Assembly: GCA_963843705.1 (NCBI GenBank)
Contig: CAWJLQ010000010.1
Location: 489-64,488 of the forward strand
Reading direction: 5' to 3'
DNA: 64,000 nucleotides
Origin: an uncultured Actinomycetes bacterium
GTDB lineage: Bacteria; Actinomycetota; Thermoleophilia; Gaiellales; JAICJC01
Shown: positions 7,177-57,639 of the stretch, piece by piece
Layout of the letters: every line of letters begins with the position of its first letter
Numbering within the stretch: position 1 is the first letter of the stretch
The notes under the pieces: generated by a model
Databases searched by the model: none
What the model was told of the DNA's origin: nothing
What the model saw: the letters and a program-made list of their open reading frames with translations, nothing else
Position numbers and translations under genes: made by a program

Positions 7177-7203
7177 GAGGCCCGGGGCCAGGCCCCGGGC
7201 CTC
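7177..7203 (+). terminator. GC hairpin GAGGCCCGGGGCC-A-GGCCCCGGGCCTC downstream of the propeller gene
   Basis: 13-bp perfect inverted repeat 17 nt after the TGA at 7160. No U tract (I-shaped type). Confidence 0.5.
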
Positions 7204-16927: not shown

Positions 16928-18376
16928 ATGGCTACTGGAACGCTCGTCGAGGTCGTCATGCCCCAGATGGGCGTGAGCGTCTCCGAGGGAACGATCACAC
17001 GCTGGACGAAGGCCGTCGGCGAGGCGATCGAGGCCGACGAGACGATCGTCGAGATCTCGACCGACAAGGTCGACACCGAGGTTCCGTCACCGGCCACGGG
17101 CGTGGTGCGCGAGCTCTTCGCCGGCGAGGGCGACACGGTGCCGGTGAACACGAAGATCGCCGTCATCGACACCGGCGGCGGCTCCGCCCCCGAGCCGGAG
17201 TCCGAGTCCGAGGGTGGTGGAGATGGAGCAGTGTCGGTGCCAGGCACCGGCGATAGCGCGAGTGAAAGCGGCGGCGAGGTCGCGGCTTCCGTGCCGGCCG
17301 GCGGCGACGAGGGACCGGTGCCCGGCACCCGCTCTGGGAGTGGCAATGGCGATGCCAACGGGCGGACGTTCGTGAGCCCGGTCGTGGCGCGCATGGTGGC
17401 CGAGCACGGCCTGGACATCGACCGCATTCCCGGCACCGGCCGCGGCGGCCGTGTGACGAAGAAGGACGTGCAGCAGTTCATCGAGTCGGGCGCGGCGGCT
17501 GCGCCCGCCCAGCCCGAGGTGCACGACGTGCCCCACTTCGCGCCGCCGCCCGAGGCGCCCGAGACCGCAGCCCCGGCGGCGCCGGCACCCGCTCCCCCGG
17601 CCGCGCCGGCGGAGCGCACCGTCGAGGTGGTCGCGGCAGGCGCGGCCGGCCCCGGCGAGGAGCTCTACCGCTTCAACACGATCCGCAAGGTGATCGCCCG
17701 GCACATGCGCCAATCGCTCGAGACGGCTGCCCAGGTGACGACGGTGATCGAGGTCGACATGACGGGCGTCGTCAACCTGCGCAAGAAGTGGAAGCCGGAG
17801 TACCAGCGCCGGTACGGCGTCAACCTGACCTACGTCCCGTTCGTCGCCCGCGCCACCATCGACGCCATCGGCCGCTGGCCGTGGGTGAACGCCGAGGTGA
17901 TGGAGGGGGGCGAGTCCGCCCTCGTGAAGCGGTACGTGAACCTGGGCATGGCGGTCGCCGTCGACGACGCCAAGGGCCTGATGGTGCCGGTGATCCACCA
18001 GGCCGAGGAGAAGAACCTCGTCGGCCTGTCGCGGTCCGTCATCGAGCTGGCGGACAAGGCGCGGACGAAGACTCTCACGAACGACGAGATGAGCGGCGCC
18101 ACGTTCACGATCACGAACCCGGGCGTCTTCGGCGCGCTGATCGGCACCCCGATCATCCCCGAGGGCCAGGTCGCGATCCTGGACGTGGAGGCGATCGTGA
18201 AGCGGCCGATGGTGGTCGCCGACGAGCACGGCAACGACGCGATCGCGATCCGGCACATGATGTTCCTGTGCCTCTCCTACGACCACCGGCTGGTCGACGG
18301 GGCCTACGCCGCCCAGTTCATGGCCCAGGTGAAGCAGAACCTGGAGTCCTGGGACGAGCACGCCTTCGGGCTCTAG
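16928..18376 (+). CDS. Dihydrolipoamide acyltransferase E2 (lipoyl domain + PSBD + catalytic domain)
   Basis: EISTDKVDTEVPSP lipoyl-Lys motif, Ala/Pro linkers, SPVVARMVAEHGLD, DHRLVDGA. SD AGGAGG upstream. Confidence 0.93.
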   Translation: MATGTLVEVVMPQMGVSVSEGTITRWTKAVGEAIEADETIVEISTDKVDTEVPSPATGVVRELFAGEGDTVPVNTKIAVIDTGGGSAPEPESESEGGGDGAVSVPGTGDSASESGGEVAASVPAGGDEGPVPGTRSGSGNGDANGRTFVSPVVARMVAEHGLDIDRIPGTGRGGRVTKKDVQQFIESGAAAAPAQPEVHDVPHFAPPPEAPETAAPAAPAPAPPAAPAERTVEVVAAGAAGPGEELYRFNTIRKVIARHMRQSLETAAQVTTVIEVDMTGVVNLRKKWKPEYQRRYGVNLTYVPFVARATIDAIGRWPWVNAEVMEGGESALVKRYVNLGMAVAVDDAKGLMVPVIHQAEEKNLVGLSRSVIELADKARTKTLTNDEMSGATFTITNPGVFGALIGTPIIPEGQVAILDVEAIVKRPMVVADEHGNDAIAIRHMMFLCLSYDHRLVDGAYAAQFMAQVKQNLESWDEHAFGL

Positions 18377-20461: not shown

Positions 20462-20513
20462 CGGGGTCAGACCCCGGGTTGGGGCCTGGCCCCGTCCGGC
20501 GGGGCCAGGCCCC
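20462..20513. repeat. Tandem array of three GC palindromes (CGGGGTCAGACCCCG, GGGGCCTGGCCCC, GGGGCCAGGCCCC) at a convergent gene junction
   Basis: Read directly. The same 13-15-mers recur at 7184, 45962, 52570 and 57625. Likely bidirectional terminators. Confidence 0.6.
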
Positions 20514-31326: not shown

Positions 31327-31689
31327 GTGCTCGGCGACTGGGCAGCATTCCTGGTCTTTGCGGCGATCGCATTCGTGATCCCGTTCAGCCTGCTCGTGGC
31401 GACGTTCACGCTCTCGACCCGAACGTCGCGGCACGCCGGTGACAAGAGCATCCCGTTCGAGTCCGGCGTGTCGTCGCACACGTTCACGGCCGGCCGGTTC
31501 ACCGTCAGCTACTACATGACCGCCCTGCTCTTCATCGTGTTCGACATCGAGATCGTCTTCCTCTACCCGCTGGCACTGGAGCTGCACGCGCTCAAGTGGT
31601 TCGGGCTGACCGAGATGGTCACGTTCGTCGTGCTCCTGGTCGTCGCGTACGCCTACGTCTGGCGGAGGGGGGCGCTGGAATGGCGGTGA
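31327..31689 (+). CDS. nuoA: NADH-quinone oxidoreductase subunit A
   Basis: PFESG...[20 protein letters not shown]. Confidence 0.9.
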
Positions 31690-32207
31690 CGCCGGTTCAC
31701 ATCGACCGCGCCGTGCGGTCGGAGGATCTCGAGCAGTACGTCATGCTGACGACCGTGGAGAAGGCGCTCGCGTGGGCGCAGTCGAACTCGATCTGGCCGG
31801 CCGGCTTCGGCCTGGCCTGCTGCGCGATCGAGATGATGTCGCTGCCCTCCCCGCGCTACGACATCGCCCGCTTCGGCGCCGAGGTGTTCCGCAGCTCGCC
31901 CCGCCAGTCCGACCTCCTGATCGTCTCGGGGCGGGTGTCGCACAAGATGTCGGCGCCGCTGCGGCAGGTGTACGACCAGATGCTCGTGCCCAAGTGGGTG
32001 ATGGCGATGGGAGCGTGCTCGAGCTCGGGCGGGATGTTCGCGAACTACGCCATCCTGCAGGGCGTGGACAAGATCGTGCCCGTGGACGTGCACGTGCCCG
32101 GCTGCCCCCCGCGGCCCGAGGCCGTGCTCGACGGGCTGCGCCTGATCCAGCGCAAGATCCGGGCCGGCATCCCGCCGGCGTACGAGCAGGAGAAGTCGAA
32201 GGCGTGA
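31680..32207 (+). CDS. nuoB: NADH-quinone oxidoreductase subunit B
   Basis: [25 protein letters not shown]. Confidence 0.93.
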
Positions 32208-32776
32208 CGGCGGCGCAGCTTGCGGCGGCGGTCCGAAAGGCCGTGCCCGGATCCGTCGTCTCGCACGAGAAGGGCATCGACATGCCGACGCTGACCGTGA
32301 AGCCGGAGAAGCTCGTCGAGGTGTGCACCTACCTGCGCGATGAGCAGGGCAAGAACTTCCTCTCGGCAGTCTCGGCCGTCGACCACCTCGGCTACGGCGA
32401 CGAGGTGTCCGGCTACTTCGGCACGGAGCGCGGCCGCGACCTGAACGCGACCGGGAGCTGGGGCGCGGCCGAGACGCCGGCGCAGCCGCCGAAGCGCTTC
32501 GCCGTCCGCTACCACGTCGCCCACGTCGGCGACGGCCCGCCCGAGCGCGTGCGCGTGCAGGTGTGGCTGGACGACGGCCAGGAGGTGGCGAGCGTCGTCC
32601 CGGTGTGGCCGACGGCCGACTGGCACGAGCGCGAGCAGTACGACCTGATGGGCATCGTCTTCGCCGGCCATCCCAACCTGCGCCGGCTGATCCTGCCGAC
32701 CGACTGGGACGGCCATCCCCTGCGCAAGGACTATCCGATCGGCGGCGAGCCGGTCCAGTTCACGGACGCCGTATGA
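32204..32776 (+). CDS. nuoC: NADH-quinone oxidoreductase subunit C
   Basis: [18 protein letters not shown]; GTGA overlap with nuoB. Confidence 0.9.
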
Positions 32777-34035
32777 GCATCGTCGAGCGCCCACCCGCCC
32801 CGGTCGAGCCGCTCTACACGCCCGCGCGCATCCCGCCCGGCGCGCCGTCGAAGGTCGACCCGCCGCCGGGCGAGGATCTGATCACCGTCAACTTCGGGCC
32901 CAACCACCCGTCGACGCACGGGGTGCTGCGCCTGATCGTGACCCTCGACGGCGAGGTGGTCGTCGGCCTCGACGCCGACATCGGCTACGTCCACACCGGC
33001 TTCGAGAAGAACTTCGAGCAGAAGACCTACTGGAAGTGCATCCCGTACGCGCCGCGGATGGACTACGTCGCCTTCTTCGCGAACGAGCTGGCCTATGTCG
33101 GCGCCGTGGAGAAGCTGATCGGGATCGAGGTGCCGGAGCGGGCGCAGTGGATCCGCACGCTCTTCGCCGAGCTGAACCGCATCCACAGCCACCTCATCTA
33201 CCTGGGCACGTCCGGGGTCGAGATGGGCGCGATGTCGGTGTTCTTCTACTGCCTGCGCGAGCGCGACGCGGTGCTCGACCTGTTCGAGATGGCCACCGGC
33301 GTGCGCATGCACGACCGCTACCCGCAGATCGGCGGCGTGGCCGAGGACCTGCCGAAGGGCTTCTACGCCGAGTGCCGCAAATTCTGCGAGATGATGCCCA
33401 AGCGCATCGACGAGTACCTCGACCTCCTGGCCGGGAACCCGGTCTGGAAGTCGCGCTACCACGGCATCGGCGCCATCACGGCAGACACGGCGATCGCGAT
33501 GGGGCTGTCCGGCCCGAACCTGCGCGCGAGCGGCGTCGCCTACGACCTGCGCCGCGTCGAGCCCTACCTCGTCTACGACCAGGTGGACTTCGACGTCATC
33601 CTCGGCGAGCGCGGCGACGCCTACGACCGCTTCCTGTGCCGGACGAAGGAGATGTACGAGTCGGTCAGGATCATCGAGCAGTGCCTCGACAAGATGCCCT
33701 CCGGGCCGGTGATGGCGACCGATCGCAAGTACGTGCTGCCGCCGCGGGCGGAGCTGCACACGTCGATGGAGTCGCTGATCCACCACTTCAAGCTCGTCAC
33801 CGAGGGCTTCCGTGTGCCGCCCGGCCAGGTGTATTACCCGGTCGAGTCGCCGCGGGGCGAGTTCGGCTGCTACCTCGTCTCCGACGGCGGCCCGAAGCCG
33901 TGGCGGGTGCACTTCCGCGCGCCGAGCTTCGTCAGCCTGCAGGTGACGGCGATGATGTCGGTCAACCGCTACATCGGCGACATGATCGTCGTCGTCGGCT
34001 CGCTCGACGGCGTCATGGGCGAGGCGGACCGGTAA
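32773..34035 (+). CDS. nuoD: NADH-quinone oxidoreductase subunit D
   Basis: NFGPNHPSTHGVLRL, ESPRGEFG; ATGA overlap with nuoC. Confidence 0.95.
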   Translation: MSIVERPPAPVEPLYTPARIPPGAPSKVDPPPGEDLITVNFGPNHPSTHGVLRLIVTLDGEVVVGLDADIGYVHTGFEKNFEQKTYWKCIPYAPRMDYVAFFANELAYVGAVEKLIGIEVPERAQWIRTLFAELNRIHSHLIYLGTSGVEMGAMSVFFYCLRERDAVLDLFEMATGVRMHDRYPQIGGVAEDLPKGFYAECRKFCEMMPKRIDEYLDLLAGNPVWKSRYHGIGAITADTAIAMGLSGPNLRASGVAYDLRRVEPYLVYDQVDFDVILGERGDAYDRFLCRTKEMYESVRIIEQCLDKMPSGPVMATDRKYVLPPRAELHTSMESLIHHFKLVTEGFRVPPGQVYYPVESPRGEFGCYLVSDGGPKPWRVHFRAPSFVSLQVTAMMSVNRYIGDMIVVVGSLDGVMGEADR

Positions 34036-34176
34036 AGATGGTCGACTCCGAACTCAACGCGCGCCCGGACGCACGACGGTCAGACGCCAGTTCAGCCACT
34101 ATGGCCGCTTCCTGCGTCCTTGCGCCGCTCGGTTCTCGCCCCCCAGGACATCACGTGAATTCGGAGTCGACCATCT
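34036..34176 (+). repeat. 141-nt hairpin element with perfect 17-bp terminal inverted repeats, filling the nuoD-nuoE gap
   Basis: AGATGGTCGACTCCGAA (34036-52) and TTCGGAGTCGACCATCT (34160-76). Inner pair GGACGCA (34067-73) / TGCGTCC (34113-19). Confidence 0.85.
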
Positions 34177-34177
34177 A

Positions 34178-34732
34178 GTGGACCCGGCCACCGCAGAGAC
34201 GCTCCGCGGCGCGCTCGAGACGCGCCCCGACATGCCCGCGCCGCTGCCGCCGGACGACACGAGCGCGCCGCTGCGCGACCGCATCCTGGCCGTCGTCGCG
34301 CTCTACCCGGAGCCGCGCTCGGCGCTGATCCCGGCGTTGCGCCTGGCCCAGGAGGAGTACGGCTGGCTGACGACCGAGGCCTACGAGCTGGTGGCCGACG
34401 CGACCGGGTTCACACCCGCTCTCTGCAAGTCGGTGGCATCGTTCTACGACATGTTCCGGCTGCAGCCGGTGGGCCGGCACGAGATCTGCGTGTGCACCAA
34501 CATCTCGTGCGCGCTCGTCGGCGCCGGCGAGACGGTGCGCGCGTTCGAGCGCGAGCTCGGCATCCAGGCCGGCGAGACGACGGCCGACGGCGCCTTCACG
34601 CTGCGCACCGTCGAGTGCTACGGCGGCTGCGGCTGGGGCCCGGTCGTCTCGGTCGACGAGCGCTACCACGAGCCCTTCGGCCCCGACCGCGTGAAGCCGC
34701 TCGTGGACGAGCTGCGGGGCGACGCGGGATGA
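34178..34732 (+). CDS. nuoE: NADH-quinone oxidoreductase subunit E
   Basis: CTNISCALVGA...ECYGGCGWGP 2Fe-2S motif. Confidence 0.9.
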   Translation: MDPATAETLRGALETRPDMPAPLPPDDTSAPLRDRILAVVALYPEPRSALIPALRLAQEEYGWLTTEAYELVADATGFTPALCKSVASFYDMFRLQPVGRHEICVCTNISCALVGAGETVRAFERELGIQAGETTADGAFTLRTVECYGGCGWGPVVSVDERYHEPFGPDRVKPLVDELRGDAG

Positions 34733-36039
34733 GCGAGCTGCGCAGGATCCTGCTCGACTTCGAGGGCGACCACCGCGACGTGCACGCCTACGAGCAGGCC
34801 GGCGGCTACGCGTCGCTGCGCAAGGCGCTCGGGATGGACACCGGCGACGTGGTCGCGGCGGTGGACGCCTCCGGCCTGCGCGGCCGCGGCGGCGCCGGCT
34901 TCCCGACCGGCCGCAAGGCCTCGTTCCTGCCCAAGGGGCGCACGCCGGCCTACCTGTGCGTGAACGCGGACGAGTCGGAGCCGGGCACGTTCAAGGACCG
35001 CGAGATCATGCTGCGCAACCCGCACGCGCTGATCGAGGGCATCGTGATCATGAGCTACGGGATCTCGGCCACCTCGGCGTTCATCTACATCCGCGGCGAG
35101 TACCGCACCGAGTTCGAGGTGCTGAAGCGGGCGCTCGAGGAGGCCCACGGCCGAGGCTATGTGGGCCGCAACGTGCTCGGGTCGGGCTACGACGCGACGA
35201 TCGTCCTGCACCGCGGCGCGGGCGCCTACATCTGCGGTGAGGAGACGGCGCTCCTGACCTCGCTCGAGGGCGAGCGCGGCCAGCCGCGCTCGAAGCCCCC
35301 GTTCCCGGCCGTCGCCGGCCTGTACGCGGCGCCGACGCTCGTGAACAACGTCGAGACGCTCGCGTCGGTGCCGTACATCCTGGAGATGGGCGGCGAGGCC
35401 TACGCCGCGATCGGCACCGAGCGCTCCAAGGGCACGCGCGTGTTCTCGCTGTCGGGCAACGTGAAGCGGCCCGGGAACTACGAGCTCCCGCTGACTGCCA
35501 CGTTGCGCGACCTGATCGAAGGCCGCGGCGGCGGAGCGCCGGACGGGCGCTCGATCAAGGCCATCATCCCCGGCGGCTCCTCGACGCCGCTGCTCATGCC
35601 CGACCAGCTCGACACCGGCATCGACTACGAGTCGATCGCGGCGGCGGGCTCGATGGCGGGCTCCGGAGCGGTGGTCGTGATCGACGACCGCGCCTGCATG
35701 GTGCAGCTCGCGCTGCGGGTGGCGCAGTTCTACCGCCACGAGAGCTGCGGCAAGTGCACGCCCTGCCGCGAGGGCACGAAGTGGGGCGTCGACATCATCC
35801 AGCGGATCGAGGACGGCACCGCCTCGCAGGGCGACCTCGACCTGCTCCTGAACGTGTGCGACCGCATCCTGGGCAAGTGCCTGTGCCCGCTGGGCGACGC
35901 GATGGCGATGCCGGTGGCGAGCTACGTCACCCACTTCCGCGAGGAGTTCCAGCGGCACATCGACGAGGGCGGCTGCCCGTTCGTCGAGCAGAGCCCGATC
36001 GCGAGCCTCTACCACGACACGGGCGGAGTGCCGGCGTGA
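34729..36039 (+). CDS. nuoF: NADH-quinone oxidoreductase subunit F
   Basis: GLRGRGGAGFPTG and ESCGKCTPCREG. Confidence 0.95.
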   Translation: MSELRRILLDFEGDHRDVHAYEQAGGYASLRKALGMDTGDVVAAVDASGLRGRGGAGFPTGRKASFLPKGRTPAYLCVNADESEPGTFKDREIMLRNPHALIEGIVIMSYGISATSAFIYIRGEYRTEFEVLKRALEEAHGRGYVGRNVLGSGYDATIVLHRGAGAYICGEETALLTSLEGERGQPRSKPPFPAVAGLYAAPTLVNNVETLASVPYILEMGGEAYAAIGTERSKGTRVFSLSGNVKRPGNYELPLTATLRDLIEGRGGGAPDGRSIKAIIPGGSSTPLLMPDQLDTGIDYESIAAAGSMAGSGAVVVIDDRACMVQLALRVAQFYRHESCGKCTPCREGTKWGVDIIQRIEDGTASQGDLDLLLNVCDRILGKCLCPLGDAMAMPVASYVTHFREEFQRHIDEGGCPFVEQSPIASLYHDTGGVPA

Positions 36040-36194
36040 ACACCTTCCACGACGCCTTCATGGACGTGCGCCGGCGCATCGAGGAGGGCGAGGACCCCGA
36101 GCTGATCGTCCCGGAGCTCCTGCGCCTGGCCTCCGCCCAGGACGAGATCGACATGGCCGAGGCGCTGTACGAGGACGAGGGCGACGATGAATAA
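36036..36194 (+). CDS. 52-aa acidic protein encoded between nuoF and nuoG (unassigned)
   Basis: The GTG overlaps the nuoF TGA (GTGA). All but one sense codon (50 of 51 after the GTG start) end in G or C. Sequence VNTFHDAFMDVRRRIEEGEDPELIVPELLRLASAQDEIDMAEALYEDEGDDE. Confidence 0.6.
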   Translation: MNTFHDAFMDVRRRIEEGEDPELIVPELLRLASAQDEIDMAEALYEDEGDDE

Positions 36195-36233
36195 CCGGTG
36201 CCTGGCACCGGGTGTTCACGAGGGGGCGTGCTG

Positions 36234-38528
36234 ATGGCGACCGTCGAGACGACCACGGTCACGCTGACGATCAACGGCCGCGAGGTGACCGTCCCGAAGG
36301 GCCTCTCGGTGGTCGAGGCGGCCGCCGAGGCGGGCGTCGAGATCCCCGTCTTCTGCTACGAGCCGCGCCTGGGTGCGGGCATCGGCGCCTGCCGCATGTG
36401 CCTGTGCGAGATCGAGGGCATGCCGAAGCTGCAGACCGCGTGCACGACCCCGGCCGCCGACGGCATGGTGATCGACTCCCACAGCGCCCGGGCGCGCGAG
36501 GGCCACGACGCCGTGCTCGAGTTCCTGCTGCTGAACCACCCGCTCGACTGCCCGGTGTGCGACAAGGGCGGCGAGTGCCCGCTGCAGGACCTGACCTTCC
36601 GCTACGGCCCGGGCGTCACCCGCATGACCCTGCCCAAGCGCACGCAGGAGAAGCCGGTCCCGATCTCGCCGCTGATCAAGCTCGACCGGGAGCGCTGCAT
36701 CCTCTGCTACCGCTGCACCCGGTTCTCGGAGGACGTCTCCGGCGACATGCAGCTCGTGCCGGAGAACCGCGGCGCCAACTCGGTGATCACCACCTTCGAG
36801 GGCCGCCCGTACACGAACGAGTTCTCCGGCAACGTCACCGAGCTGTGCCCGGTCGGCGCGCTCACCTCGACCACGTACCGGTTCCGGGCGCGGCCGTGGG
36901 AGATCCAGAACGTGCCCACGGTCTGCACCGGCTGCGCCGTCGGCTGCAACACCTACTCCACGATCCGCGAGGGCCAGGTCGCCCGTGTCCTCTCCCGCAA
37001 CCATCCCGGGGTGGACGAGGGCTGGCTGTGCGACCGCGGCCGCTACGCGCTCGGCCATCTGCGCGCCCCCGACCGCGTCACCCAGAACCTGATCCGCGGC
37101 GGCCGCGGGCTCGAGGCGGTGTCGACGGCAGAGGTGCTCGACCACGTCGCCGACCGCCTGCGCGCCACCGTCGAGCGCTTCGGCGCCGGCTCGGTGGCCG
37201 TGCTCGCCTCGGGCGAGCAGACGAACGAGGAGGCGTATGCCTGGGCGCGGATCCTGGAGGCGCTCGGCGGCGGGGTGAGCGTCGCCGGGCCGGAGAGCGG
37301 CCCCTGGTGGGACGACCTGGCGCCCTACGCGGCCTCGATCGAGGACGTCGGCCGCGCGCGCACGATCGTCGTCGCCGGCGACCCCGACCTCGGCCACCGC
37401 GCGCCCGTCATCGAGCTCTGGATCCGCAAGGCCGTGCGCGGGGGCGCCCGCGTGGTCACCGTCGGCCCCGGCGCCACCCGCCTCGACACGCTGCGCGGCG
37501 CCACGAACATCCCGGCCGCCCCCGGCACCGCCCACGCGGCGCTGCTCGAGGCCGCGGCCGCCGACGGCGCTCTGGCCGGGCCGCTGGGCGAGGACGGCGC
37601 CGTCGTCATCTGGGCCGGGCCGATGCGGGCGGAGGTGGCGTCGGTGCTCGCGCACGTCGCCCACGCGACCGGCTGCGCGGTGCTGCGGACGCCCCGGGCC
37701 GCGAACGAGGTCGGCTCCCGTGCCGCCGGTCTGGGCGGCGTCACCGCCGAGCAGGCGCTGCAGCAGGCGGAGGCCGGCGAGGTGCGCGCGATGATCATCC
37801 TCGGCGCCGACCCCGTCGGCGACTGGAGCGCCGGCGAGCGCTGGCGCGCCGCCCTGGCGCGCTGCTTCTTCGCGCTCCAGGTGACGGCGTTCCAGAACGA
37901 CTCGTCCGGCTGGGTGACGACGATGGTGCCCGAGGCGGCCGGCCTCGAGAAGGACGGCACGGTCACGAACCTCGAGGGCCGGGTGCAGCGCGTGCGCGGC
38001 GCCGCCCGCGCACCCGAGGGCGTCTCGGACGGCTACGCCTGGGCGGCCGAGCTGGCGGACCGGCTCGGCCTCGACCTGCCCCACGACCCGCCGGCGGCCT
38101 TCACCGAGATGGCGGCGCGGCTGCCCGCGTTCGCCGGCATGTCGTGGTCGGAGATCGGCGAGCGTGCGCCGCTCGGCGAGCGGCCCGCGGCGGCCGCCGC
38201 CCCGGCGGCGCCGCAGATGGCGCCGGCCGCCGTGCCCCAGACGGTCGTCGTCGGCTACCGCGAGCTGATGTCCGGGCCTGCGGTCGACCACACCGAGGAG
38301 CTCCAGTTCCAGCGCCGCAGGGGGATCGAGATCTCGTTCGAGGACGCCGAGCGGCTCGGCGTCGCCACCGGCGACCGCATCGCCGTCACGCAGGACGGAA
38401 GCACCGTGGCCGGGCCGGCGCTCGTGCAGCGGCGGCTGCGGCCGGGGGTCGTGCGCATGGCGGCACGCGTCCCCCACGTCGGCCCGGGCGCGGTGGCCGT
38501 CGCGCCCGCGGAGGCGGCCGGTGCCTGA
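36234..38528 (+). CDS. nuoG: NADH-quinone oxidoreductase subunit G
   Basis: CRMCLCEIEG, HPLDCPVCDKGGECPLQD, CILCYRCTRF. SD GAGGGGG upstream of ATG 36234. Confidence 0.93.
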   Translation: MATVETTTVTLTINGREVTVPKGLSVVEAAAEAGVEIPVFCYEPRLGAGIGACRMCLCEIEGMPKLQTACTTPAADGMVIDSHSARAREGHDAVLEFLLLNHPLDCPVCDKGGECPLQDLTFRYGPGVTRMTLPKRTQEKPVPISPLIKLDRERCILCYRCTRFSEDVSGDMQLVPENRGANSVITTFEGRPYTNEFSGNVTELCPVGALTSTTYRFRARPWEIQNVPTVCTGCAVGCNTYSTIREGQVARVLSRNHPGVDEGWLCDRGRYALGHLRAPDRVTQNLIRGGRGLEAVSTAEVLDHVADRLRATVERFGAGSVAVLASGEQTNEEAYAWARILEALGGGVSVAGPESGPWWDDLAPYAASIEDVGRARTIVVAGDPDLGHRAPVIELWIRKAVRGGARVVTVGPGATRLDTLRGATNIPAAPGTAHAALLEAAAADGALAGPLGEDGAVVIWAGPMRAEVASVLAHVAHATGCAVLRTPRAANEVGSRAAGLGGVTAEQALQQAEAGEVRAMIILGADPVGDWSAGERWRAALARCFFALQVTAFQNDSSGWVTTMVPEAAGLEKDGTVTNLEGRVQRVRGAARAPEGVSDGYAWAAELADRLGLDLPHDPPAAFTEMAARLPAFAGMSWSEIGERAPLGERPAAAAAPAAPQMAPAAVPQTVVVGYRELMSGPAVDHTEELQFQRRRGIEISFEDAERLGVATGDRIAVTQDGSTVAGPALVQRRLRPGVVRMAARVPHVGPGAVAVAPAEAAGA

Positions 38529-39520
38529 CGGCTTCATCGTCACCCTGATCAAGGCGATCGTCCTGGCCAACCTCGTGATGGGCGTCTTCGCGCTGCTGAC
38601 CTGGGCCGAGCGGCGCCTGCTGGGCCGCTTCCAGGTCCGCCTGGGACCGAACCGGGTCGGCCCCTTCGGCCTGCTGCAGCCCATCGCCGACCTGGTCAAG
38701 CTGATCCGCAAGGAGAGCCTGATGCCGGTCGGCGTGAACCCGCTGCTCTACCTGACGGCGCCGCTCGTCTCGCTCTTCGCGTCGCTGGCCGTGTTCGCGG
38801 TGATCCCCTTCGGCGGCCAGGCGACGATCCCCGGCACCGACTACAAGATCTTCCTGTGGATCTCCAACCCGGGCGTCGCGCTGCTGGTCGTCTTCGCGCT
38901 CGGCTCGCTCAGCTTCTACGGGTTCCTGGTCGGCGGCTGGTCGTCGAGCTCGAAGTACAGCCTGCTCGGCTCGATGCGGGCCGTGTCGCAGCTGATCTCC
39001 TACGAGGTCAGCCTGGCCCTCGCGGTGATCGGGGTGGTCATGATGAGCCACTCGCTCTCGCTGACCCGGATCGTCGCCTCGCAGCACCAGGGCAGCAGCC
39101 TGCCCTACATCATCCCGCAGTTCCTCGGGTTCCTCGTGTACGTGGTGGCCTCGACCGCGGAGACGAGCCGCATCCCCTTCGACCTGCCCGAGGCGGAGGG
39201 CGAGCTGGTCGCCGGCTACCACACCGAGTACGGCGGCATGCGCTTCGCGATGTTCCAGAACGCCGAGTACGTGGCGCTGATCGCCTTCTCTGCCGTGGCG
39301 TCCATCCTCTTCCTCGGCGGCTACGGCTGGCCGTGGCTGCCCGGCCCGATCTGGATGGTGCTCGAGATGTCCGATCTTCATCTTCGTGGCGATGTGGCTG
39401 CGGGCGACCCTGCCGCGCGTGCGCTATGACAAGCTCATGGTGATCGGCTGGAAGGTGCTCCTGCCGCTGGCCACCGTCAACCTGCTGGTCACGTCAGTGA
39501 TCGTCGCCTGGAGGGCATAG
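38521..39520 (+). pseudogene. nuoH: nuoH, interrupted as assembled: conserved C-terminus ([31 protein letters not shown]) lies in the +1 frame from about 39374
   Basis: Frame A reads NuoH-like sequence to [11 protein letters not shown], then nonsense to TGA 39429. Frame A+1 from 39374 to TAG 39520 gives the canonical NuoH end. Confidence 0.7.
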
Positions 39521-39521
39521 T

Positions 39522-39676
39522 GGGCCTTCTCGCGATGTCAGGCCCGTTCTGGCGGCTGCAAACCATCGCGCTGAGGCGTCCTCGGACGGCGTCGTGCAAA
39601 GCACTGCCGCCGTCCGTCGTCCTTTCATCGCTCGGTTTTCGCTCGCCATCTCCAAACCACCATCACGAGAAGGTCC
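39522..39676 (+). repeat. 155-nt structured spacer between nuoH and nuoI, related to the 34036 element
   Basis: Terminal pairing GGGCCTTCTCG (39522-32) with CGAGAAGGTCC (39666-76, one G-U). Inner hairpin CGGACGGCG (39583-91) / CGCCGTCCG (39608-16). CGCTCGGTTTTCGC matches the 34126-39 segment of the nuoD-nuoE element at 13 of 14 positions. Confidence 0.65.
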
Positions 39677-39683
39677 ACTGACG

Positions 39684-40178
39684 ATGCCGGTCACCGATTC
39701 GGTCAAGGGCTTCGGCGTCACGTTCCGACACCTGTTCCGCAAGCCCGTCACCCAGCAGTACCCCGAGTACAAGCGCCCCGTCTACCCGCGCTTCCGCGGC
39801 CGCCACCGCCTGCACCGGCACGAGAACGGCCTCGAGAAGTGCGTCGGCTGCTCGCTCTGCGCCGCCGCCTGCCCGGCCGACTGCATCCGCGTCGTCGCGG
39901 CGGAGAACACCGAGCAGGAGCGCTACTCGGCGGGCGAGCGCTACGCCCGCATCTACGAGATCAACATGAGCCGCTGCATCTTCTGCGGCTACTGCGAGCT
40001 GGCCTGCCCCTTCGACGCGATCACGCTCGGCCACGACTACGAGCTGGCCGAGATGTCGCGCGACGCGATGGTCTACACGAAGGACATGCTGCTCGAGCCG
40101 ATGCACCCGAGCCGGACGACGCCGGTCGCCCCCTCCGACCCGTTCGACGTGGTGGAGCCGGCGGGAGGCGAGGCGTGA
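39684..40178 (+). CDS. nuoI: NADH-quinone oxidoreductase subunit I
   Basis: [12 protein letters not shown] and [12 protein letters not shown]. Confidence 0.93.
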
Positions 40179-40819
40179 CCTACGACATCGTCTTCGTCGT
40201 CGCGTCGGTGGTCGCGATCGTCGCGGCGCTGACCGTGGTGCTGTCCGGCAACCCGTTCATCTCGTCGCTGTCGCTGATCGCGAACCTGATCGCGCTCGCC
40301 ACCTTCTACCTGCTGCTGCAGTCCGACTTCCTGGCCGCCGCGCAGGTGATCGTGTACGCCGGGGCGGTGATGATCATGTTCCTGTTCGTCACCGCCTACC
40401 TGGGCGGCAGAGCCGACGAGCCGACCCGTGAGCGGCCGGTCTGGCAGACGCTCGGGGCGCTCGCCGCCGCCGCCGCGGTCGCGGCCGAGATCGTGTTCGG
40501 CGTCGCCCGCCAGAGCTTCCTGCACGGCCCCGTCGTGAGCGACGCCTTCGGCGCCCCGCAGGCGATCGCCGGCCGCTTCCTGGGCCGCTACCTGCTCGCG
40601 TTCGAGGGCACCTCGATCCTGCTCCTGATCGCGGCGGTCGGCGGCGTCGTCCTGGCCACCCGCCGGCCGGCGCCGCGCGGCGCGGACGAGCCGGGTGCGT
40701 TCGAGGTCGTCCGGGCCGAGCCGGTGCCGTCGCTGCAGTCGTCGGTGATGGACCGCGAGACTCGCTTCGACGTCGTGCACACGGGGGCGCCCGCCGAGGA
40801 CGAGCAGGCGGACGCCTGA
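40175..40819 (+). CDS. nuoJ: NADH-quinone oxidoreductase subunit J
   Basis: [19 protein letters not shown]; GTGA overlap with nuoI. Confidence 0.9.
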
Positions 40820-41124
40820 TGCACGTCGGTATCCAGTGGTTCATCTTCGTGTCGGCCGTCCTCTTCGGGATCGGCCTGTACGGCGTCTTCACCCGCCGCA
40901 GCCCGCTGATCCTGCTGCTCTCCGTCGAGATCATGCTGAACGCCTGCAACCTGGCGCTGATCTCCTTCTCGCGCTACCTGGGCGAGCAGTCGGGGCAGGT
41001 GTTCGCGCTGGTCGTGATGGCCGTGGCCGCGTCCGAGGTCGTCGTCGGGCTCGGGCTGGTGGTCGCCGTCGCCAGGCGCAAGGCCGACCTCGACGTCGAC
41101 CGGATGACGGGGCTGAGGCATTGA
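40819..41124 (+). CDS. nuoK: NADH-quinone oxidoreductase subunit K
   Basis: LLSVEIMLNACNLALI...AASEVVVGL. Confidence 0.93.
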   Translation: MHVGIQWFIFVSAVLFGIGLYGVFTRRSPLILLLSVEIMLNACNLALISFSRYLGEQSGQVFALVVMAVAASEVVVGLGLVVAVARRKADLDVDRMTGLRH

Positions 41125-41143
41125 TGGCGGAGACGGCCGTCTG

Positions 41144-43042
41144 ATGGAGACGCTCGCCTGGATCTGCCTGTTCGCGCCGCTGGCCGGCGTCGTGCTGCTG
41201 ACGCTGGCCGGCTCGCGCATCTCCCGCACCGCCGCCGCCTGGGCGGGGACGCTGCTCGCGTTCGCGGCGTTCGCCGCCGCCGTCGCCGAGTTCGTCCAGA
41301 TCCTGGGCGAGAACGCCTCGCAGCGCGCCCACACCTACACGCTCTACACCTGGGCCGGGTCGCCGACGTTCAAGGTGCCGCTGGCGGTGCTCGTCGACCC
41401 GCTCTCGGTCACCGAGATGCTGATCGTCGCCGGGGTCGGGGCCGTGATCGTCATGTACTCGATCGGCTACATGCACGGCGACCCGAAGGAGCGCCGCTTC
41501 TTCGTCTACCTCGACCTGTTCCTGTTCTCGATGCTGCTCCTGGTGATGTCGGCCAACTTCGTGCTGCTCCTGGCCGGCTGGGGCCTGGTCGGCCTCTCGT
41601 CGTACCTCCTGATCGGGTTCTGGCACGAGCGGCCGGAGCCGGTCGCGGCGGCCAAGAAGGCGTTCGTGATGAACGCGATCGGCGACGTCGGCATCGTCGT
41701 GGCGATCTTCTTCATGGTGCGCGACCTCGGCACGACCGACTTCGCCGCGGTCTTCCACCTCGGCCCGCAGCACTGGGCGAAGGGCTCCGCCGACGCCAAC
41801 TGGGTGGCCGCGGGGCTGCTGATCGGAGCGATCGCCAAGTCGGCCCAGATCCCGCTCCACACCTGGCTTCCCGACGCGATGGAGGGCCCCACCCCGGTCT
41901 CCGCCCTGATCCACGCCGCCACCATGGTGACCGCCGGCGTCTACCTGGTCGCGCGCACGCACGTGCTGTTCGCAAACGCCCCGGACATCCAGGCGCTGGT
42001 GGCGCTGCTCGGCCTCGCCACCCTGCTCATGGCCGGCGTCATCGCCCTCGTCCAGACCGACATCAAGCGGATCATCGCCTACTCCACGATGAGCCAGATC
42101 GGCTACATGTTCACCGCGGTCGGCGTGGGCGCCTACGCGGCGGGCATGTTCCACCTGCTGACGCACGCCTTCTTCAAGGCCCTGCTCTTCCTCGGAGCCG
42201 GCATCGTCATCCACGCGCTGGGCGGCGAGCAGGACGTGCGCCGCATGGGCGGGCTCGGCTCGGCGCTGCCGAAGACGAAGTGGCTGATGTGGGTCGGCAC
42301 CGTCGCGCTGATCGGGTTCTGGCCGCTCTCCAAGGACGGCATCCTGGCCGGCGCGCTGCAGAAGGGCGGGACGACGGCGATCCTGGTCTGGGCCGGCGGT
42401 CTGGTGGGCGCCTTCTTCACCGGCGTCTACGCCACCCGCCTGATGCGGCTGACCTTCTACGGCGAGCGCTCGCATTACGCGACGGAGCACCTGCACACCG
42501 ACCACGGCGAGGCGCCGTGGGTGATGTTCTGGCCGGTGCTCGCGCTCGCCGTCGGCGCCGTCCTCTCCGGCTTCCTCGCCATCGGCTTCGGGATCAACAC
42601 GACGTTCGGGACATGGCTCGAGCGCGTGGCGCCAGCGATCGAGCCGACGACGCCGCAGGACCTGCTGACGACGGCGATCGCGTGGTCGGCCGGCGGCGCG
42701 GGCGCCCTGCTCACCTGGCGCGCCTACGCCGACCCCGGCCTGCTCGAGCGGCTGAAGCGCCCGTTCGGGGCGCTCATCACCGCGTCGGAGCACAAGTTCT
42801 ACTGGGACGAGGCGTACGACCGGTTCGCCTACGCCCCCGCCGCGGCGGTGGCCTCGGGGCTCTACCGCTTCGTCGAGCGGTGGCTGATCTGGGGCACGGT
42901 CGACCTGGTCGCGTGGATCGTGGGGGCGTTCGCCCGCGGCACCGCAGATGCGCAGTCCGGCGTGGTGCGCGAGTACGCGGCCGTGCTCGCGGCCGGCGCC
43001 GCGGTTCTCGGGGTCTACTTCCTGTCGAGGGCGACGCTGTGA
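41144..43042 (+). CDS. nuoL: NADH-quinone oxidoreductase subunit L
   Basis: 632 aa; WLPDAMEGPTPVSALIHAATMVTAG. Confidence 0.95.
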   Translation: METLAWICLFAPLAGVVLLTLAGSRISRTAAAWAGTLLAFAAFAAAVAEFVQILGENASQRAHTYTLYTWAGSPTFKVPLAVLVDPLSVTEMLIVAGVGAVIVMYSIGYMHGDPKERRFFVYLDLFLFSMLLLVMSANFVLLLAGWGLVGLSSYLLIGFWHERPEPVAAAKKAFVMNAIGDVGIVVAIFFMVRDLGTTDFAAVFHLGPQHWAKGSADANWVAAGLLIGAIAKSAQIPLHTWLPDAMEGPTPVSALIHAATMVTAGVYLVARTHVLFANAPDIQALVALLGLATLLMAGVIALVQTDIKRIIAYSTMSQIGYMFTAVGVGAYAAGMFHLLTHAFFKALLFLGAGIVIHALGGEQDVRRMGGLGSALPKTKWLMWVGTVALIGFWPLSKDGILAGALQKGGTTAILVWAGGLVGAFFTGVYATRLMRLTFYGERSHYATEHLHTDHGEAPWVMFWPVLALAVGAVLSGFLAIGFGINTTFGTWLERVAPAIEPTTPQDLLTTAIAWSAGGAGALLTWRAYADPGLLERLKRPFGALITASEHKFYWDEAYDRFAYAPAAAVASGLYRFVERWLIWGTVDLVAWIVGAFARGTADAQSGVVREYAAVLAAGAAVLGVYFLSRATL

Positions 43043-44496
43043 CGACCGCGCTCGTCGTCCTCCCGCTCGCCGGCGCGCTCGTCGTCGGGCTGCTGCCGCT
43101 GGGGCGCCGCCAGACCGAGGCGCTCGCGCTGCTGGTGGCGCTGGCGGAGGTCGTGCTGGGCGCGGTGGCGCTGGTGGGCTTCAAGGTCGGCGGCGGCATC
43201 CAGTACGTCCAGAACACGCAGTGGGTCTCCCACTTCGGCGACGCCGCACCCATCCGCTACCACGTCGGCATGGACGGCCTCTCGCTCTTCATGATGCTGC
43301 TCACCGCCGTGGGCATCGCCGCGGCGATCGGCGCGGCGATGGTGGCCGGGCGCGCGCGCCCGCGCGCCTACATGGGCCTCCTGCTCCTGCTCGAGTCGGC
43401 CCTCGTCCTGCTCTTCACCGCCCAGGACCTGGTGCTGTTCTACGTCGGCTGGGAGGTGATGATGATCCCGCTCTACATCCTGATGGGCGTGTGGGGCGGG
43501 GACGGCCGCCGCCGGGCGACGCTCCAGTTCGTCGTCTACACGATGGTCGGGTCGCTCCTCATGCTGACCGCGATCGCGGTGCTGGGCGTGTCGGCGCACT
43601 CGTTCGAGCTCGACGCGCTGACGGCGTCGCCGCACGAGTCGACCTGGCTCTTCCTGGCCTTCGCGGCGGCGTTCTGCATCAAGGCGCCGCTCTTCCCCCT
43701 GCACGGGTGGCTGCCCTCCGCCTACCGCGAGTCGACGCCCGAGGTGACCGCGCTCCTCTCCGGAGTCATCTCCAAGGCCGGCGCCTACGGCCTGCTGCGG
43801 TTCGCGCTGCCGCTGTTCCCGAAGGTCGCCCACGACTGGCGCTGGGTCTTCCTGGGGCTCGGCCTGGCGGGGCTCCTGTACGGGGCGCTGGTGGCGTTCC
43901 GCCAGCCGGACGCCCGCGGCGTCGTCGCCTACTCGAGCCTGTCGCAGATGAACCTGATCGTGATCGGGATCTTCGTCTTCAACGTGAACGGCGTCACCGG
44001 CGCGACGCTGCAGATGGTGAATCACGGCGTCGTCTCGCTGGCCGCGTTCCTGCTGATCGGCCTGATCGAGCTGCGCGCCGGCAGCGACGGCTTCCGCGTC
44101 CTCGGCGGGCTCTCGAACCGCCGCCCGGTGATGTCGACGGTGCTCCTGATCGCCGCGCTATGGGCGCTCGCGGTGCCGGGGTCGAGCATCTTCGTGTCCG
44201 AGCTCTACATCCTGATCGGCGCGTTCCAGCAGCAGGCGGTGCTGGGCGCCGCGGCGGCGTGCGGGATCGTGCTCGCGGCCATGTACATGCTGCGCTGGTA
44301 CTCGGCGCTGGCGCACGAGGACAACGGGGAGCGCGTCAGCGACGAGACGCCCGACCTGCGCCTGCCCGAGCTCGCGATCGCGGTGCCGCTCGTCCTGATC
44401 CTGCTCGCGATGACCGCCTATCCGTACGGCGTCATGCGCCGGATCGCGGACTCCCAGGTCGGCTTCGGCGTCCCGGCGAAGGTGCAGAAGCTGTGA
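43039..44496 (+). CDS. nuoM: NADH-quinone oxidoreductase subunit M
   Basis: FYVGWEVMMIPLY and HGWLPSAY; GTGA overlap with nuoL. Confidence 0.95.
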   Translation: MTTALVVLPLAGALVVGLLPLGRRQTEALALLVALAEVVLGAVALVGFKVGGGIQYVQNTQWVSHFGDAAPIRYHVGMDGLSLFMMLLTAVGIAAAIGAAMVAGRARPRAYMGLLLLLESALVLLFTAQDLVLFYVGWEVMMIPLYILMGVWGGDGRRRATLQFVVYTMVGSLLMLTAIAVLGVSAHSFELDALTASPHESTWLFLAFAAAFCIKAPLFPLHGWLPSAYRESTPEVTALLSGVISKAGAYGLLRFALPLFPKVAHDWRWVFLGLGLAGLLYGALVAFRQPDARGVVAYSSLSQMNLIVIGIFVFNVNGVTGATLQMVNHGVVSLAAFLLIGLIELRAGSDGFRVLGGLSNRRPVMSTVLLIAALWALAVPGSSIFVSELYILIGAFQQQAVLGAAAACGIVLAAMYMLRWYSALAHEDNGERVSDETPDLRLPELAIAVPLVLILLAMTAYPYGVMRRIADSQVGFGVPAKVQKL

Positions 44497-45947
44497 TCCA
44501 CACGATCCCCGTCTCGTTCACTGCCATCGGCCCGGAGATCATCCTGCTGGGGACGGCGGCGGTCCTGCTCGTGACGATGATCTTCCTGCCGGACGAGCCG
44601 GCCCGGCTCCTCTCCGCCGGGGCGACCGTCGCGGCCTTCACGGCGGCGACGGTGTGGGCGGCGGCCTCGTTCCACGACCATGCCCGGGCGCCGTTCGACC
44701 ACACGCTGCGCATCGACGCCTTCGGGCAGGGCGGCCGCATGCTCGTGTTCGTGGCGGCGATCGTCGCGGTGGCGTTCTCGTGGGGGATGCGCGACCTGCG
44801 CGAGCGCGGCGTCGAGTACCACGTCCTGCTCCTGACCGCGGGCGCCGGCATGTCGCTGCTCTGCGTCGCCAACAGCTTCGTGACGGCGTTCGTCGCGCTC
44901 GAGCTCTTCTCGCTCGCCCTCTACGTGCTGGTGGCGATCGAGACCGACGACCTGCGCTCGCTCGAAGGCGGCCTCAAGTACCTGATCATCGGCTCGATCG
45001 GAGCGGCCTTCCTGCTCTACGGAGCGGCGCTCACCTACGGCGCCAGCGGGCAGCTCGAGTTCGACCGCATCCACTCGGCCCTCGCGGCCGGCGACCGCCA
45101 CGACGTGCTCGTGCTGATCGGCCTGACGCTCGTGCTCGTCGGCCTCGGCTTCAAGGCCAACGCGGCGCCGTTCCACATGTGGACGCCGGACGCCTACGAG
45201 GGCGCGCCGACGCCGGTGACGGCGTTCATGTCGGCGGCGACGAAGGTCGTCGCGCTCGTGTTCGCGCTGCGGGTGCTCGTGACGGCGTTCCCGCGCCAGT
45301 CCGACGTGTGGCAGATCGGCGTGGCCGGGATCGTGATCGCCTCGTTCGCCGTGGGCAACCTGGGCGCCCTGCGCCAGGCGAACGTGAAGCGGATGCTCGC
45401 CTACTCGACCGTCGGCCACTCGGGCTTCCTGCTCACCGCCGTGGCCGCCCACAGCGTGCTCGGCACGCGGGCGCTGCTCTACTACCTGACGGTCTACGGG
45501 GCGATGAACCTGGGCGCCTTCGGCATCGTGGCGGTGCGCGAGCGCGAGATCGGCCGGCCCGTCGAGATCGCCGACTTCGGCGGCTGGGGCTACCGGCGGC
45601 CGCTGCTTGGGGCCTGCATGCTCGTGTGCATGCTCTCGCTGGCGGGCTTCCCGCCGACGGGCGGCTTCCTGGGCAAGCTCTACATCTTCTCCGCCGCCGC
45701 CCAGAACGGCCAGGCCTGGCTCGCCGTGGCCGGCGTCGTGGCGACGATGGTCGGGCTCGTGTACTACCTGAAGGTGCCGTTCGCCCTCTACGACCGCGAC
45801 GCGACCGTGCCCCAGGCGACGCCGGGGCCGGCCTTCGGCCTGACCGCCTCGGCGGCGGCGCTCGCGACCCTGGCCGTGCTCGTGCTCGGCATCGTGCCGA
45901 CGCCGCTGATCGACCTGGCGCGCACCGCGTCGAGCTCGCTGTTCTAG
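44493..45947 (+). CDS. nuoN: NADH-quinone oxidoreductase subunit N
   Basis: FHMWTPDAYEGAPTPVTAF; GTGA overlap with nuoM. Confidence 0.93.
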   Translation: MIHTIPVSFTAIGPEIILLGTAAVLLVTMIFLPDEPARLLSAGATVAAFTAATVWAAASFHDHARAPFDHTLRIDAFGQGGRMLVFVAAIVAVAFSWGMRDLRERGVEYHVLLLTAGAGMSLLCVANSFVTAFVALELFSLALYVLVAIETDDLRSLEGGLKYLIIGSIGAAFLLYGAALTYGASGQLEFDRIHSALAAGDRHDVLVLIGLTLVLVGLGFKANAAPFHMWTPDAYEGAPTPVTAFMSAATKVVALVFALRVLVTAFPRQSDVWQIGVAGIVIASFAVGNLGALRQANVKRMLAYSTVGHSGFLLTAVAAHSVLGTRALLYYLTVYGAMNLGAFGIVAVREREIGRPVEIADFGGWGYRRPLLGACMLVCMLSLAGFPPTGGFLGKLYIFSAAAQNGQAWLAVAGVVATMVGLVYYLKVPFALYDRDATVPQATPGPAFGLTASAAALATLAVLVLGIVPTPLIDLARTASSSLF

Positions 45948-57624: not shown

Positions 57625-57639
57625 CGGGGTCAGACCCCG
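57625..57639 (+). terminator. GC palindrome CGGGGTCAGACCCCG
   Basis: Identical 15-mer to 20462-76. Lies 19 nt after the stop at 57606. Confidence 0.45.

Follow-up and report, generated by a model that had tools for sequence, protein, structure and literature searches.

A small gene between nuoF and nuoG

We examined a 64,000-nucleotide (nt) stretch of DNA from an uncultured Actinomycetes bacterium of the order Gaiellales (GenBank assembly GCA_963843705.1, contig CAWJLQ010000010.1, positions 489 to 64,488; hereafter, the window). Its plus strand carries an operon for respiratory complex I (nuo, window positions 31327-45947) in which an open reading frame (ORF) of 52 codons, encoding a very acidic protein, lies between nuoF and nuoG. 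Canonical nuo operons have no cistron at this position, as the original prediction had stated and as we found for outgroup operons as well. The ORF, hereafter the small gene, is almost certainly a real protein-coding gene, judging from its composition, conservation and pattern of substitution. The features of the junction are:

34729-36039, plus strand: nuoF, 436 amino acids (aa); Pfam Complex1_51K, SLBB and NADH_4Fe-4S; 92% identity by tblastn with the NuoF of a relative
36036-36039, plus strand: overlap (GTGA) of the nuoF TGA and the small-gene GTG; an [AG]TGA overlap is present in 28/28 distinct carrier loci
36036-36194, plus strand: small gene, 52 codons plus TAA, 6.0 kDa acidic product; recognized from sequence, composition, homologues, selection and AlphaFold2
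36220-36226, plus strand: Shine-Dalgarno (SD) sequence of nuoG, GAGGGGG, within an inserted segment; the G-run is kept in all relatives with a spacer
36234-38528, plus strand: nuoG, 764 aa; Pfam Fer2_4, NADH-G_4Fe-4S_3, Fer4_Nqo3, Molybdopterin and Molydop_binding; tblastn

Pfam matches identified the genes flanking the ORF as those for NuoE, NuoF, NuoG and NuoH. On re-reading the sequence we recovered the same coordinates and the same 52-residue peptide as originally predicted, with the start codon (GTG, 36036-36038) overlapping the nuoF stop (TGA, 36037-36039) and the frame closing at a TAA (36192-36194). The small gene has an SD of its own (GGAG, 36025-36028) 7 nt upstream of the GTG and inside the last codons of nuoF (GGC GGA GTG CCG GCG), and nuoG starts at the ATG at 36234. 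The same type of 4-nt overlap (NTGA) had been counted at five other junctions of the operon; there are six (B/C, C/D, E/F, I/J, L/M and M/N).

The nucleotide composition follows the predicted frame. Within a window of 70-76% guanine plus cytosine (GC), the GC fractions at codon positions 1/2/3 are 0.79/0.29/0.96 in the small gene, 0.72/0.53/0.91 in nuoF and 0.74/0.55/0.98 in nuoG, and the frame with high third-position GC (GC3) changes exactly at the GTGA, as for a new reading frame. The coding bias claimed for the ORF is therefore real, with the correction that 49 of the 51 codons after the start end in G or C, rather than 50, as both of the last two (GAT and GAA) end in A or T. The description of the product as very acidic and without a membrane segment was also borne out, with 18 Asp plus Glu residues against 4 Arg and no hydrophobic stretch.

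Conservation and selection

A word-indexed search returned 49 close homologues (42-58 aa, 71-94% identity), all unnamed or annotated as “hypothetical protein” and some labelled Gaiellales, and independent gene callers also predict the ORF. Calling the gene unassigned was thus only partly right: an identical protein is already in public data on 14 contigs, yet only as a “hypothetical protein”. No name, family or literature is attached to it, though the ORF is already predicted in databases, and our literature search turned up no description of a gene at this junction in Actinomycetota.

We checked the genomic context of the homologues by looking up the encoding contigs, by scanning one genome per species and by retrieving more distant loci anchored on NuoF (L032, L034, L036 and L037). 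All 28 distinct relatives whose NuoF is at least 74% identical to that of the window carry the same ORF between nuoF and nuoG, with the [AG]TGA overlap at its start. The scan contributed 20 metagenome-assembled genomes with the gene, labelled Gaiellales, Thermoleophilia or Actinomycetota. Stops or frameshifts at this junction in close relatives had been named as the finding that would speak against a gene; the frame is intact in all 28 distinct loci. Insertions and deletions in the ORF are of whole codons and fall almost entirely in the part that encodes an acidic tail. In sequences down to 44% identity, seven residues are invariant (F4, G18, V25, A32, E37, I38 and L44) and six others nearly so (A7, R12, D20, P26, L28 and A41).

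The ratio of nonsynonymous to synonymous change, another check that had been proposed, pointed to purifying selection on the amino-acid sequence. Over all pairs, the ratio of substitution rates (dN/dS) was 0.35 for the small gene versus 0.20 for nuoF and nuoG of the same genomes, and the ratio of proportions (pN/pS) in 14 phylogenetically independent pairs was 0.50 (Fisher p = 9e-10); both are probably overestimates because the extreme GC3 bias holds dS down. The far end of the gene is also tied to its neighbor in many loci: its stop codon overlaps or abuts the nuoG start (as TGATG, TAGTG, GTGA or TAG|TTG) in L017, L021-L027, L032, L034, L036 and L037. In most of the clade, the small gene is therefore coupled on both sides, to nuoF and to nuoG.

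We also considered a fusion of the small protein with NuoG by stop-codon readthrough, as spacers of 36, 39, 48, 51 and 189 nt keep the two frames in register in the window and many of its relatives. This was ruled out because the frames are out of register in L014 (52 nt), in L015 (38 nt) and wherever stop and start overlap.

Distribution in one lineage

The carriers of the small gene are the loci whose NuoF is 74-94% identical to that of the window. In three outgroup loci (L029, L030 and L031; NuoF 68-73% identical) the gene is absent and the nuoF stop directly overlaps the nuoG start. When 1.84 billion representative proteins were searched exhaustively with the family profile, only 13 clusters came up at E <= 0.001, none with a member of known function; those clearly related are 30-62 aa long or are fusions and chimeras with neighboring genes. 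The free-standing clusters are proteins of 30-59 aa; two are fusions with the neighboring genes (P0050, small protein to NuoG; P0054, NuoF to small protein), three are chimeric or otherwise odd (P0053, P0057 and P0058), and three are long repetitive proteins with weak matches over several stretches (P0060-P0062). From the profile search and the survey of loci, and within a sensitivity limited by a 54-position profile, the family is confined to one Gaiellales-like lineage.

The rare chimeras (P0053, 249 aa; P0057, 187 aa; P0058, 56 aa) join half of the small protein to unrelated sequence; in P0053, for example, only the first 33 residues resemble the family. Either assembly errors or genuine rearrangements could have produced these chimeras. 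Non-carriers showed another peculiarity, in that the NuoF of L029, L030, P0170, P0180 and P0182 has a longer, His-rich C-terminal tail (e.g., APVDEHHAHVRARIEVPA) that carriers do not have. This tail and the small gene are not strictly complementary because L031 has neither.

In a neighbor-joining tree of NuoF, the crown group that includes the window had 98% bootstrap support. Carriers were monophyletic in 27% of the replicates and the non-carrier L031 was nested inside them in 72%, so that the order of L036, L031, L032 and L037 is not settled. These values are compatible both with a single gain of the small gene and with a gain followed by one loss.

Origin of the small gene

One basal carrier offers a plausible route for the origin of the gene. 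In the outgroup, the nuoF/nuoG junction reads GTGAGCGCCCCCGAGCTCGTCACG and NuoG begins VSAPELVT. In the basal carrier L037, the outgroup junction motif (GTGAGCGCSCCCG) is present at both ends of the small gene. The left junction, between nuoF and the small gene, reads GTGAGCGCGCCCG followed by CCGCAGCGACCTTCCGC, and the small protein begins VSAPAAATFRDAY; the right junction reads GTGAGCACCGGCGAGCTGGTGACG, has the TGA of the small gene inside its GTGA, and leads into a NuoG that begins VSTGELVT. Hence, the small gene probably arose when ~185 nt were inserted into the ancestral nuoG after its first 13 nt, with duplication of the GTGA junction. The ORF opens at the left GTG and closes at the right TGA because the length of the insert is 2 mod 3. 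This model is drawn from a single basal lineage, L037.

No paralogue or source sequence for the insert turned up when the window and the outgroup loci were searched with the profile in all six frames, or in the profile search of 1.84 billion proteins. Two sources within the operon were tried and rejected. The first was a fragment split off NuoE, NuoF or NuoG: the small protein has no Pfam match at E = 10, and the domain sets of NuoF and NuoG are complete. The second was a duplicated C-terminal tail of NuoF, for which the outgroup “HVRARIEVP” can be set beside “DVRRRIEEG” in the small protein; the small-protein profile scored at most 3.7 bits against 123 NuoF sequences.

A palindromic insertion ahead of nuoG

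The hairpin CCGGTGC-CTG-GCACCGG that had been placed at 36195-36211, after the TAA of the small gene and before the SD of nuoG, is there to the letter. It is the core of a longer palindrome, next to which lies a second copy of the start of nuoG:

36188-36218, plus strand: 31-nt palindrome; outer arms TGAATAA (36188-94) and GTGTTCA (36212-18), stem 36195-36201 / 36205-36211, loop CTG
36180-36188, plus strand: GGCGACGAT, left copy of the duplicated nuoG 5' end (compare TGGCGACCGT at 36235-36244); encodes the final G-D-D of the small protein

The palindrome takes in the TAA of the small gene, its last codon (GAA) and the last two bases of the preceding GAT. The last codons of the small gene in the window (GGC GAC GAT GAA TAA) are built from the left repeat copy plus an arm of the palindrome. 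The spacer and its hairpin are absent from L017, L021-L027, L032, L036 and L037, in which the stop overlaps the start, and from L034, in which the two abut. Most other carrier loci have the spacer, and L028 has a different one of 189 nt. What was gained is apparent from L014, which is 53 nt longer here than L017: 40 nt are insert, and the other 13 duplicate the start of nuoG, giving a 13-bp direct repeat (TAGTGGCSACGGT).

In an alignment of 13 relatives, the consensus spacer reads TGAATAA-n-CGGGGTCTGACCCCG-n-TTATTCA followed by the G-run and the start codon, and the window has the CCGGTGCCTGGCACCGG variant. The palindromic structure has been kept, as 86% of the alignment cells pair and double changes (GC<->UA and UA<->CG) have occurred. 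Related GC-rich palindromes (CCGGGGCCAGGCCCCGG, TCGGTGCCAGGCACCGG and GGGGTCAGACCCC) are found elsewhere in the window, at 7182-7198, 17234-17250, 17315-17331, 20463-20475 and 57626-57638, with those at 7182, 20463 and 57626 lying just past stop codons. Such palindromes are far more numerous than in shuffled sequence (10 matches vs 1.3 expected; 2 vs 0.24). The element thus shows the recurrence, the presence or absence among relatives and the flanking direct repeats of dispersed palindromic elements such as repetitive extragenic palindromes (REP) and miniature inverted-repeat transposable elements (MITE).

The hairpin does not read as an intrinsic terminator: its plus-strand tail (GTGTTCACGA) has no T-run, and a consensus scan reported the stem on the minus strand only. 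Its fold (z-score of -1.4) is not exceptional for DNA of this composition, and an Rfam scan of the whole window gave no matches. Because it is a later palindromic insertion, restricted to a subclade, that recurs at the ends of other genes, the hairpin does not characterize the gene family. We read it as an insertion of a generic kind, which broke the coupling between the small gene and nuoG and gave the latter an SD.

Two separate insertions at the 5' end of nuoG each left a direct target duplication of 13 bp, TAGTGGCSACGGT around the palindrome (L014, 3157-3235, vs L017) and GTGAGCRCSSSCG around the body of the small gene (L037, 2711 and 2896). Their equal length may be a coincidence or may reflect a common mechanism of insertion.

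Features of the small protein

The small protein has a net charge of -14, an isoelectric point of about 4, a grand average of hydropathy of -0.71 and no cysteine. Across the family, the proteins are 52-62 aa long and carry net charges of -9 to -17, and none of the 62 sequences has a cysteine or any other residue for binding a cofactor. The 7-13 residues that follow a conserved L-[YW] are 70% Asp or Glu and variable in sequence. AlphaFold2, run with a 50-sequence alignment, modelled a helix (residues 4-16), a turn (G18-x-D20-P21) and a second helix (21-49), with a mean predicted local distance difference test score of 79 that falls to about 50 in the tail. The protein is thus predicted to be a two-helix hairpin with an acidic tail. 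Among its peptides are the tryptic IEEGEDPELIVPELLR and also LASAQDEIDMAEALYEDEGDDE.

Searches for relatives of known function were negative. Neither Pfam (E <= 10) nor NCBIfam gave a meaningful match, a Foldseek search of the PDB with the predicted fold retrieved nothing at E < 5, and a profile search of all PDB chains yielded, up to E = 10, nothing beyond designed repeat proteins, Rpo10 and an epimerase. Residues 6-28 have a local likeness to the helix-turn-helix of archaeal Rpo10/RpoN (E = 0.012 against the PDB, 23 residues, DaFldvRRRieeGeDpelvVpeL). Membership in the Rpo10/RpoN/RPB10 family, which has a zinc-binding CxxC...CC motif and a helical bundle, was rejected, with no cysteine in any of the 62 family members. 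The likeness is probably a convergent helix-G-x-D-P-helix motif because the zinc-binding cysteines are absent.

A candidate accessory subunit of complex I

Given its position, its two-sided coupling and its conservation, we tentatively favor the reading of the small protein as a lineage-specific, stoichiometric accessory subunit of the N-module of complex I, and give this slightly less than an even chance. Ribosomes that end translation of nuoF can reinitiate at the overlapping GTG, which has the GGAG 7 nt upstream, and synthesis of the small protein would keep pace with that of NuoF and NuoG. The protein would bind the NADH-oxidizing N-module (NuoE/F/G) as a supernumerary subunit, docking through its conserved hairpin with the R-R-R cluster and the G-x-D-P turn. 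The variable acidic tail would be left exposed, where it could stabilize the module or tune its surface charge. In a more specific version, which is possible though doubtful, a protein without detectable relatives was inserted at the nuoF/nuoG junction of an operon that ranks among the most conserved known, was coupled on both sides at once because the GTGA junction was duplicated, and was fixed in a lineage of soil actinobacteria as a fifteenth, N-module-bound subunit whose exposed acidic tail alters the interactions of the tip with its partners or the stability of the tip.

Several observations weigh against an accessory subunit. The case for a role as subunit or assembly factor is drawn solely from gene position, double translational coupling and purifying selection, and a position inside the operon is equally typical of dedicated chaperones. 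Selection on the small gene is weaker than on the core subunits. The three outgroup enzymes work without the protein, which is therefore not essential to the core mechanism. Furthermore, the Pfam, NCBIfam, PDB profile and Foldseek searches revealed no similarity to any known accessory subunit or chaperone. The fusions P0050 and P0054, which might have served as Rosetta-stone evidence, look unreliable and were not used. P0050 is on a contig (L033) where nuoG is in separate pieces and where shifting the GAC-repeat tail by 1 nt would bring back a TAATG overlap, and the small-protein sequence is lost part-way through P0054.

The closest rival, which we consider unlikely, is a dedicated assembly or maturation factor that binds nascent NuoF or NuoG transiently and is not kept in the mature enzyme, for instance by holding the N-terminal Fe-S domains of NuoG or the C-terminus of NuoF during cofactor insertion. 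Position and coupling argue for it as they do for a subunit, the weaker constraint relative to core subunits is in keeping with it, and chaperones encoded within the operon are common for redox enzymes; indeed, FdsD was first proposed to be one (PMC7171172). However, the family has neither cofactor-binding residues nor any likeness to known maturation factors, and the tight coupling on both sides suggests synthesis together with NuoF and NuoG, for which a catalytic chaperone would have no need.

Less probable still is a function apart from the structure of complex I, such as that of a small acidic regulator, of a mimic or of a tail on which a basic partner protein docks, with the nuo operon serving merely for co-expression. 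High negative charge and a variable acidic tail, retained as properties rather than as sequence, are typical of electrostatic decoys and docking tails, and the weak local resemblance to the Rpo10 helix-turn-helix could be taken in the same sense, but that match spans 23 residues only and lacks the zinc-binding cysteines. Moreover, an intact gene was never seen away from the nuoF/nuoG junction.

We regard as distinctly improbable that an ORF born by insertion has been kept mainly as a relay for translational coupling from nuoF to nuoG, with its translation mattering and not its peptide. The ORF does sit exactly at the ancestral overlap of nuoF stop and nuoG start, has the appearance of an insertion that duplicated the junction, and has a tail that is free to vary and that in the window is partly built from a later insertion. 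A mere relay would not account for residues that are invariant down to 44% identity or for the significant suppression of nonsynonymous change, and in the subclade of the window the ORF is intact and conserved even though nuoG has its own SD after the spacer. Finally, a chance open frame in DNA of 72% GC is very improbable: long spurious ORFs are frequent here (the open frame of the small gene reaches back to 35754, and there are two overlapping antisense ORFs), but the start codon is the very point at which the GC3 periodicity changes frame, relatives share the start overlap, indels come in whole codons only and preserve the frame, pN/pS is 0.5 (p about 1e-9) and independent gene callers predict the gene.

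The proposed accessory subunit can be compared with known systems. MSMEG_2064 (Rv3143) is a lineage-specific protein encoded in the nuo operon beyond the 14 core genes, and cryo-electron microscopy shows it to be a subunit of mycobacterial complex I (PMC10068793). Its fold is that of a response regulator, its gene lies on the 5' side of nuoA, and its binding partner is NuoB, close to the membrane arm (PMC10068793). The small protein is likewise lineage-specific, from Actinomycetota and encoded in the nuo operon, but is a 6 kDa acidic protein, predicted to form a hairpin, whose gene lies at the nuoF/nuoG junction and whose sequence is not similar to that of MSMEG_2064. FdsD, a cofactor-free subunit of the NAD-dependent formate dehydrogenase FdsGBAD encoded last in fdsGBACD, is a four-helix bundle of 71 aa (7 kDa) (PMC7171172). 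FdsG, FdsB and FdsA are the homologues of NuoE, NuoF and NuoG, and FdsD locks a domain of the NuoG homologue (PMC7171172). The small protein resembles FdsD in being very small, helical (as predicted here), cofactor-free and encoded in the operon of a NuoEFG-type enzyme, but it has two predicted helices, not four, and no match to the Pfam FdsD family or in the PDB profile search.

Other bacterial supernumerary subunits are found in restricted lineages and are dispensable for the core mechanism, such as Nqo15 and Nqo16 of Thermus thermophilus and the NDUFS4, NDUFS6 and NDUFA12 homologues of Paracoccus denitrificans (PMC12361115, PMC10068793). They share with the small protein the restriction to a lineage and showed no similarity to it in the PDB profile search; with Foldseek included, there was no sequence or fold match to Nqo15, Nqo16, NDUFV3, NDUFS4, NDUFS6, NDUFA2, NDUFA12 or MSMEG_2064. 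Nqo15, Nqo16 and the three Paracoccus homologues are larger, have other folds and are encoded outside the nuo/nqo operon. In Paracoccus, URF2 and URF3 lie between NQO1 and NQO3. An extra gene in the nuo cluster of Rhodobacter capsulatus, urf7, encodes a methyltransferase-like protein of 257 aa (PMC9036352). Like the small gene, the alphaproteobacterial urf genes are extra cistrons within a conserved complex I operon, the F-G position included, and their role is mostly unknown, but they are larger, unrelated and from a different phylum. The hinge protein of complex III (QCR6/UQCRH) is a small, very acidic helical hairpin with an acidic tail, stabilized by disulfides and thought to steer electrostatic docking. 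It is an analogy only, as the small protein has no cysteines, is encoded with another complex and has no Pfam match. Set beside these systems, the small protein would be a new, unrelated case of an accessory protein that is confined to one lineage and encoded together with complex I.

The bacterial enzyme is commonly viewed as a fixed machine of 14 subunits, and the few supernumerary subunits known from Thermus, Paracoccus and Mycobacterium each altered views on the 30 or so extra subunits of the mitochondrial enzyme. If our reading as an accessory subunit is correct, a 6 kDa protein born in the nuoF/nuoG junction would be an unusually clean and datable case, with the scars of the insertion still visible, of how a conserved respiratory complex acquired an additional subunit. 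The protein would further provide a concrete target in the Gaiellales, an abundant but barely cultured order of soil bacteria. Were the ORF a mere passenger, it would still be a useful example of the birth of a small gene at an overlapping stop/start site.

Other features of the nuo operon

The remaining genes of the operon are arranged as follows:

31327-31689, plus strand: nuoA
31680-32207, plus strand: nuoB
about 32204-32776, plus strand: nuoC
32773-34035, plus strand: nuoD
34178-34732, plus strand: nuoE
from 38521, plus strand: nuoH
39684-40178, plus strand: nuoI
40175-40819, plus strand: nuoJ
40819-41124, plus strand: nuoK
41144-43042, plus strand: nuoL
43039-44496, plus strand: nuoM
44493-45947, plus strand: nuoN

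The nuoH gene has an apparent frameshift at 39365-39372. Its ORF from 38521 stops early at 39429 (302 aa), and the 331-aa NuoH of a relative aligns in two frames (38527-39372 and 39365-39517). Either an indel in the assembly or a real lesion would produce this pattern.

Two intergenic spacers are also enlarged. The spacer between nuoH and nuoI (39521-39683) is about 164 nt versus 10 nt in L001 and is bounded by imperfect inverted repeats (GTGGGCCTTCTCG ... CGAGAAGGTCCAC); no other copy of this element was present in the fetched loci. The spacer between nuoD and nuoE (34036-34177) measures 142 nt versus 22 nt in L001, is bounded by perfect 17-bp inverted repeats (AGATGGTCGACTCCGAA ... TTCGGAGTCGACCATCT) and ends on the right with the native spacer. 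It shares an internal motif, CGCTCGGTT(C/T)TCGC, with the nuoH-nuoI spacer. Related copies occupy the same gap in L020 and in L002/L012, and positions 76-124 of the element recur in the 189-nt spacer between the small gene and nuoG of L028. From this distribution, the nuoD-nuoE insertion looks like a mobile or duplicating intergenic element within the nuo operon.

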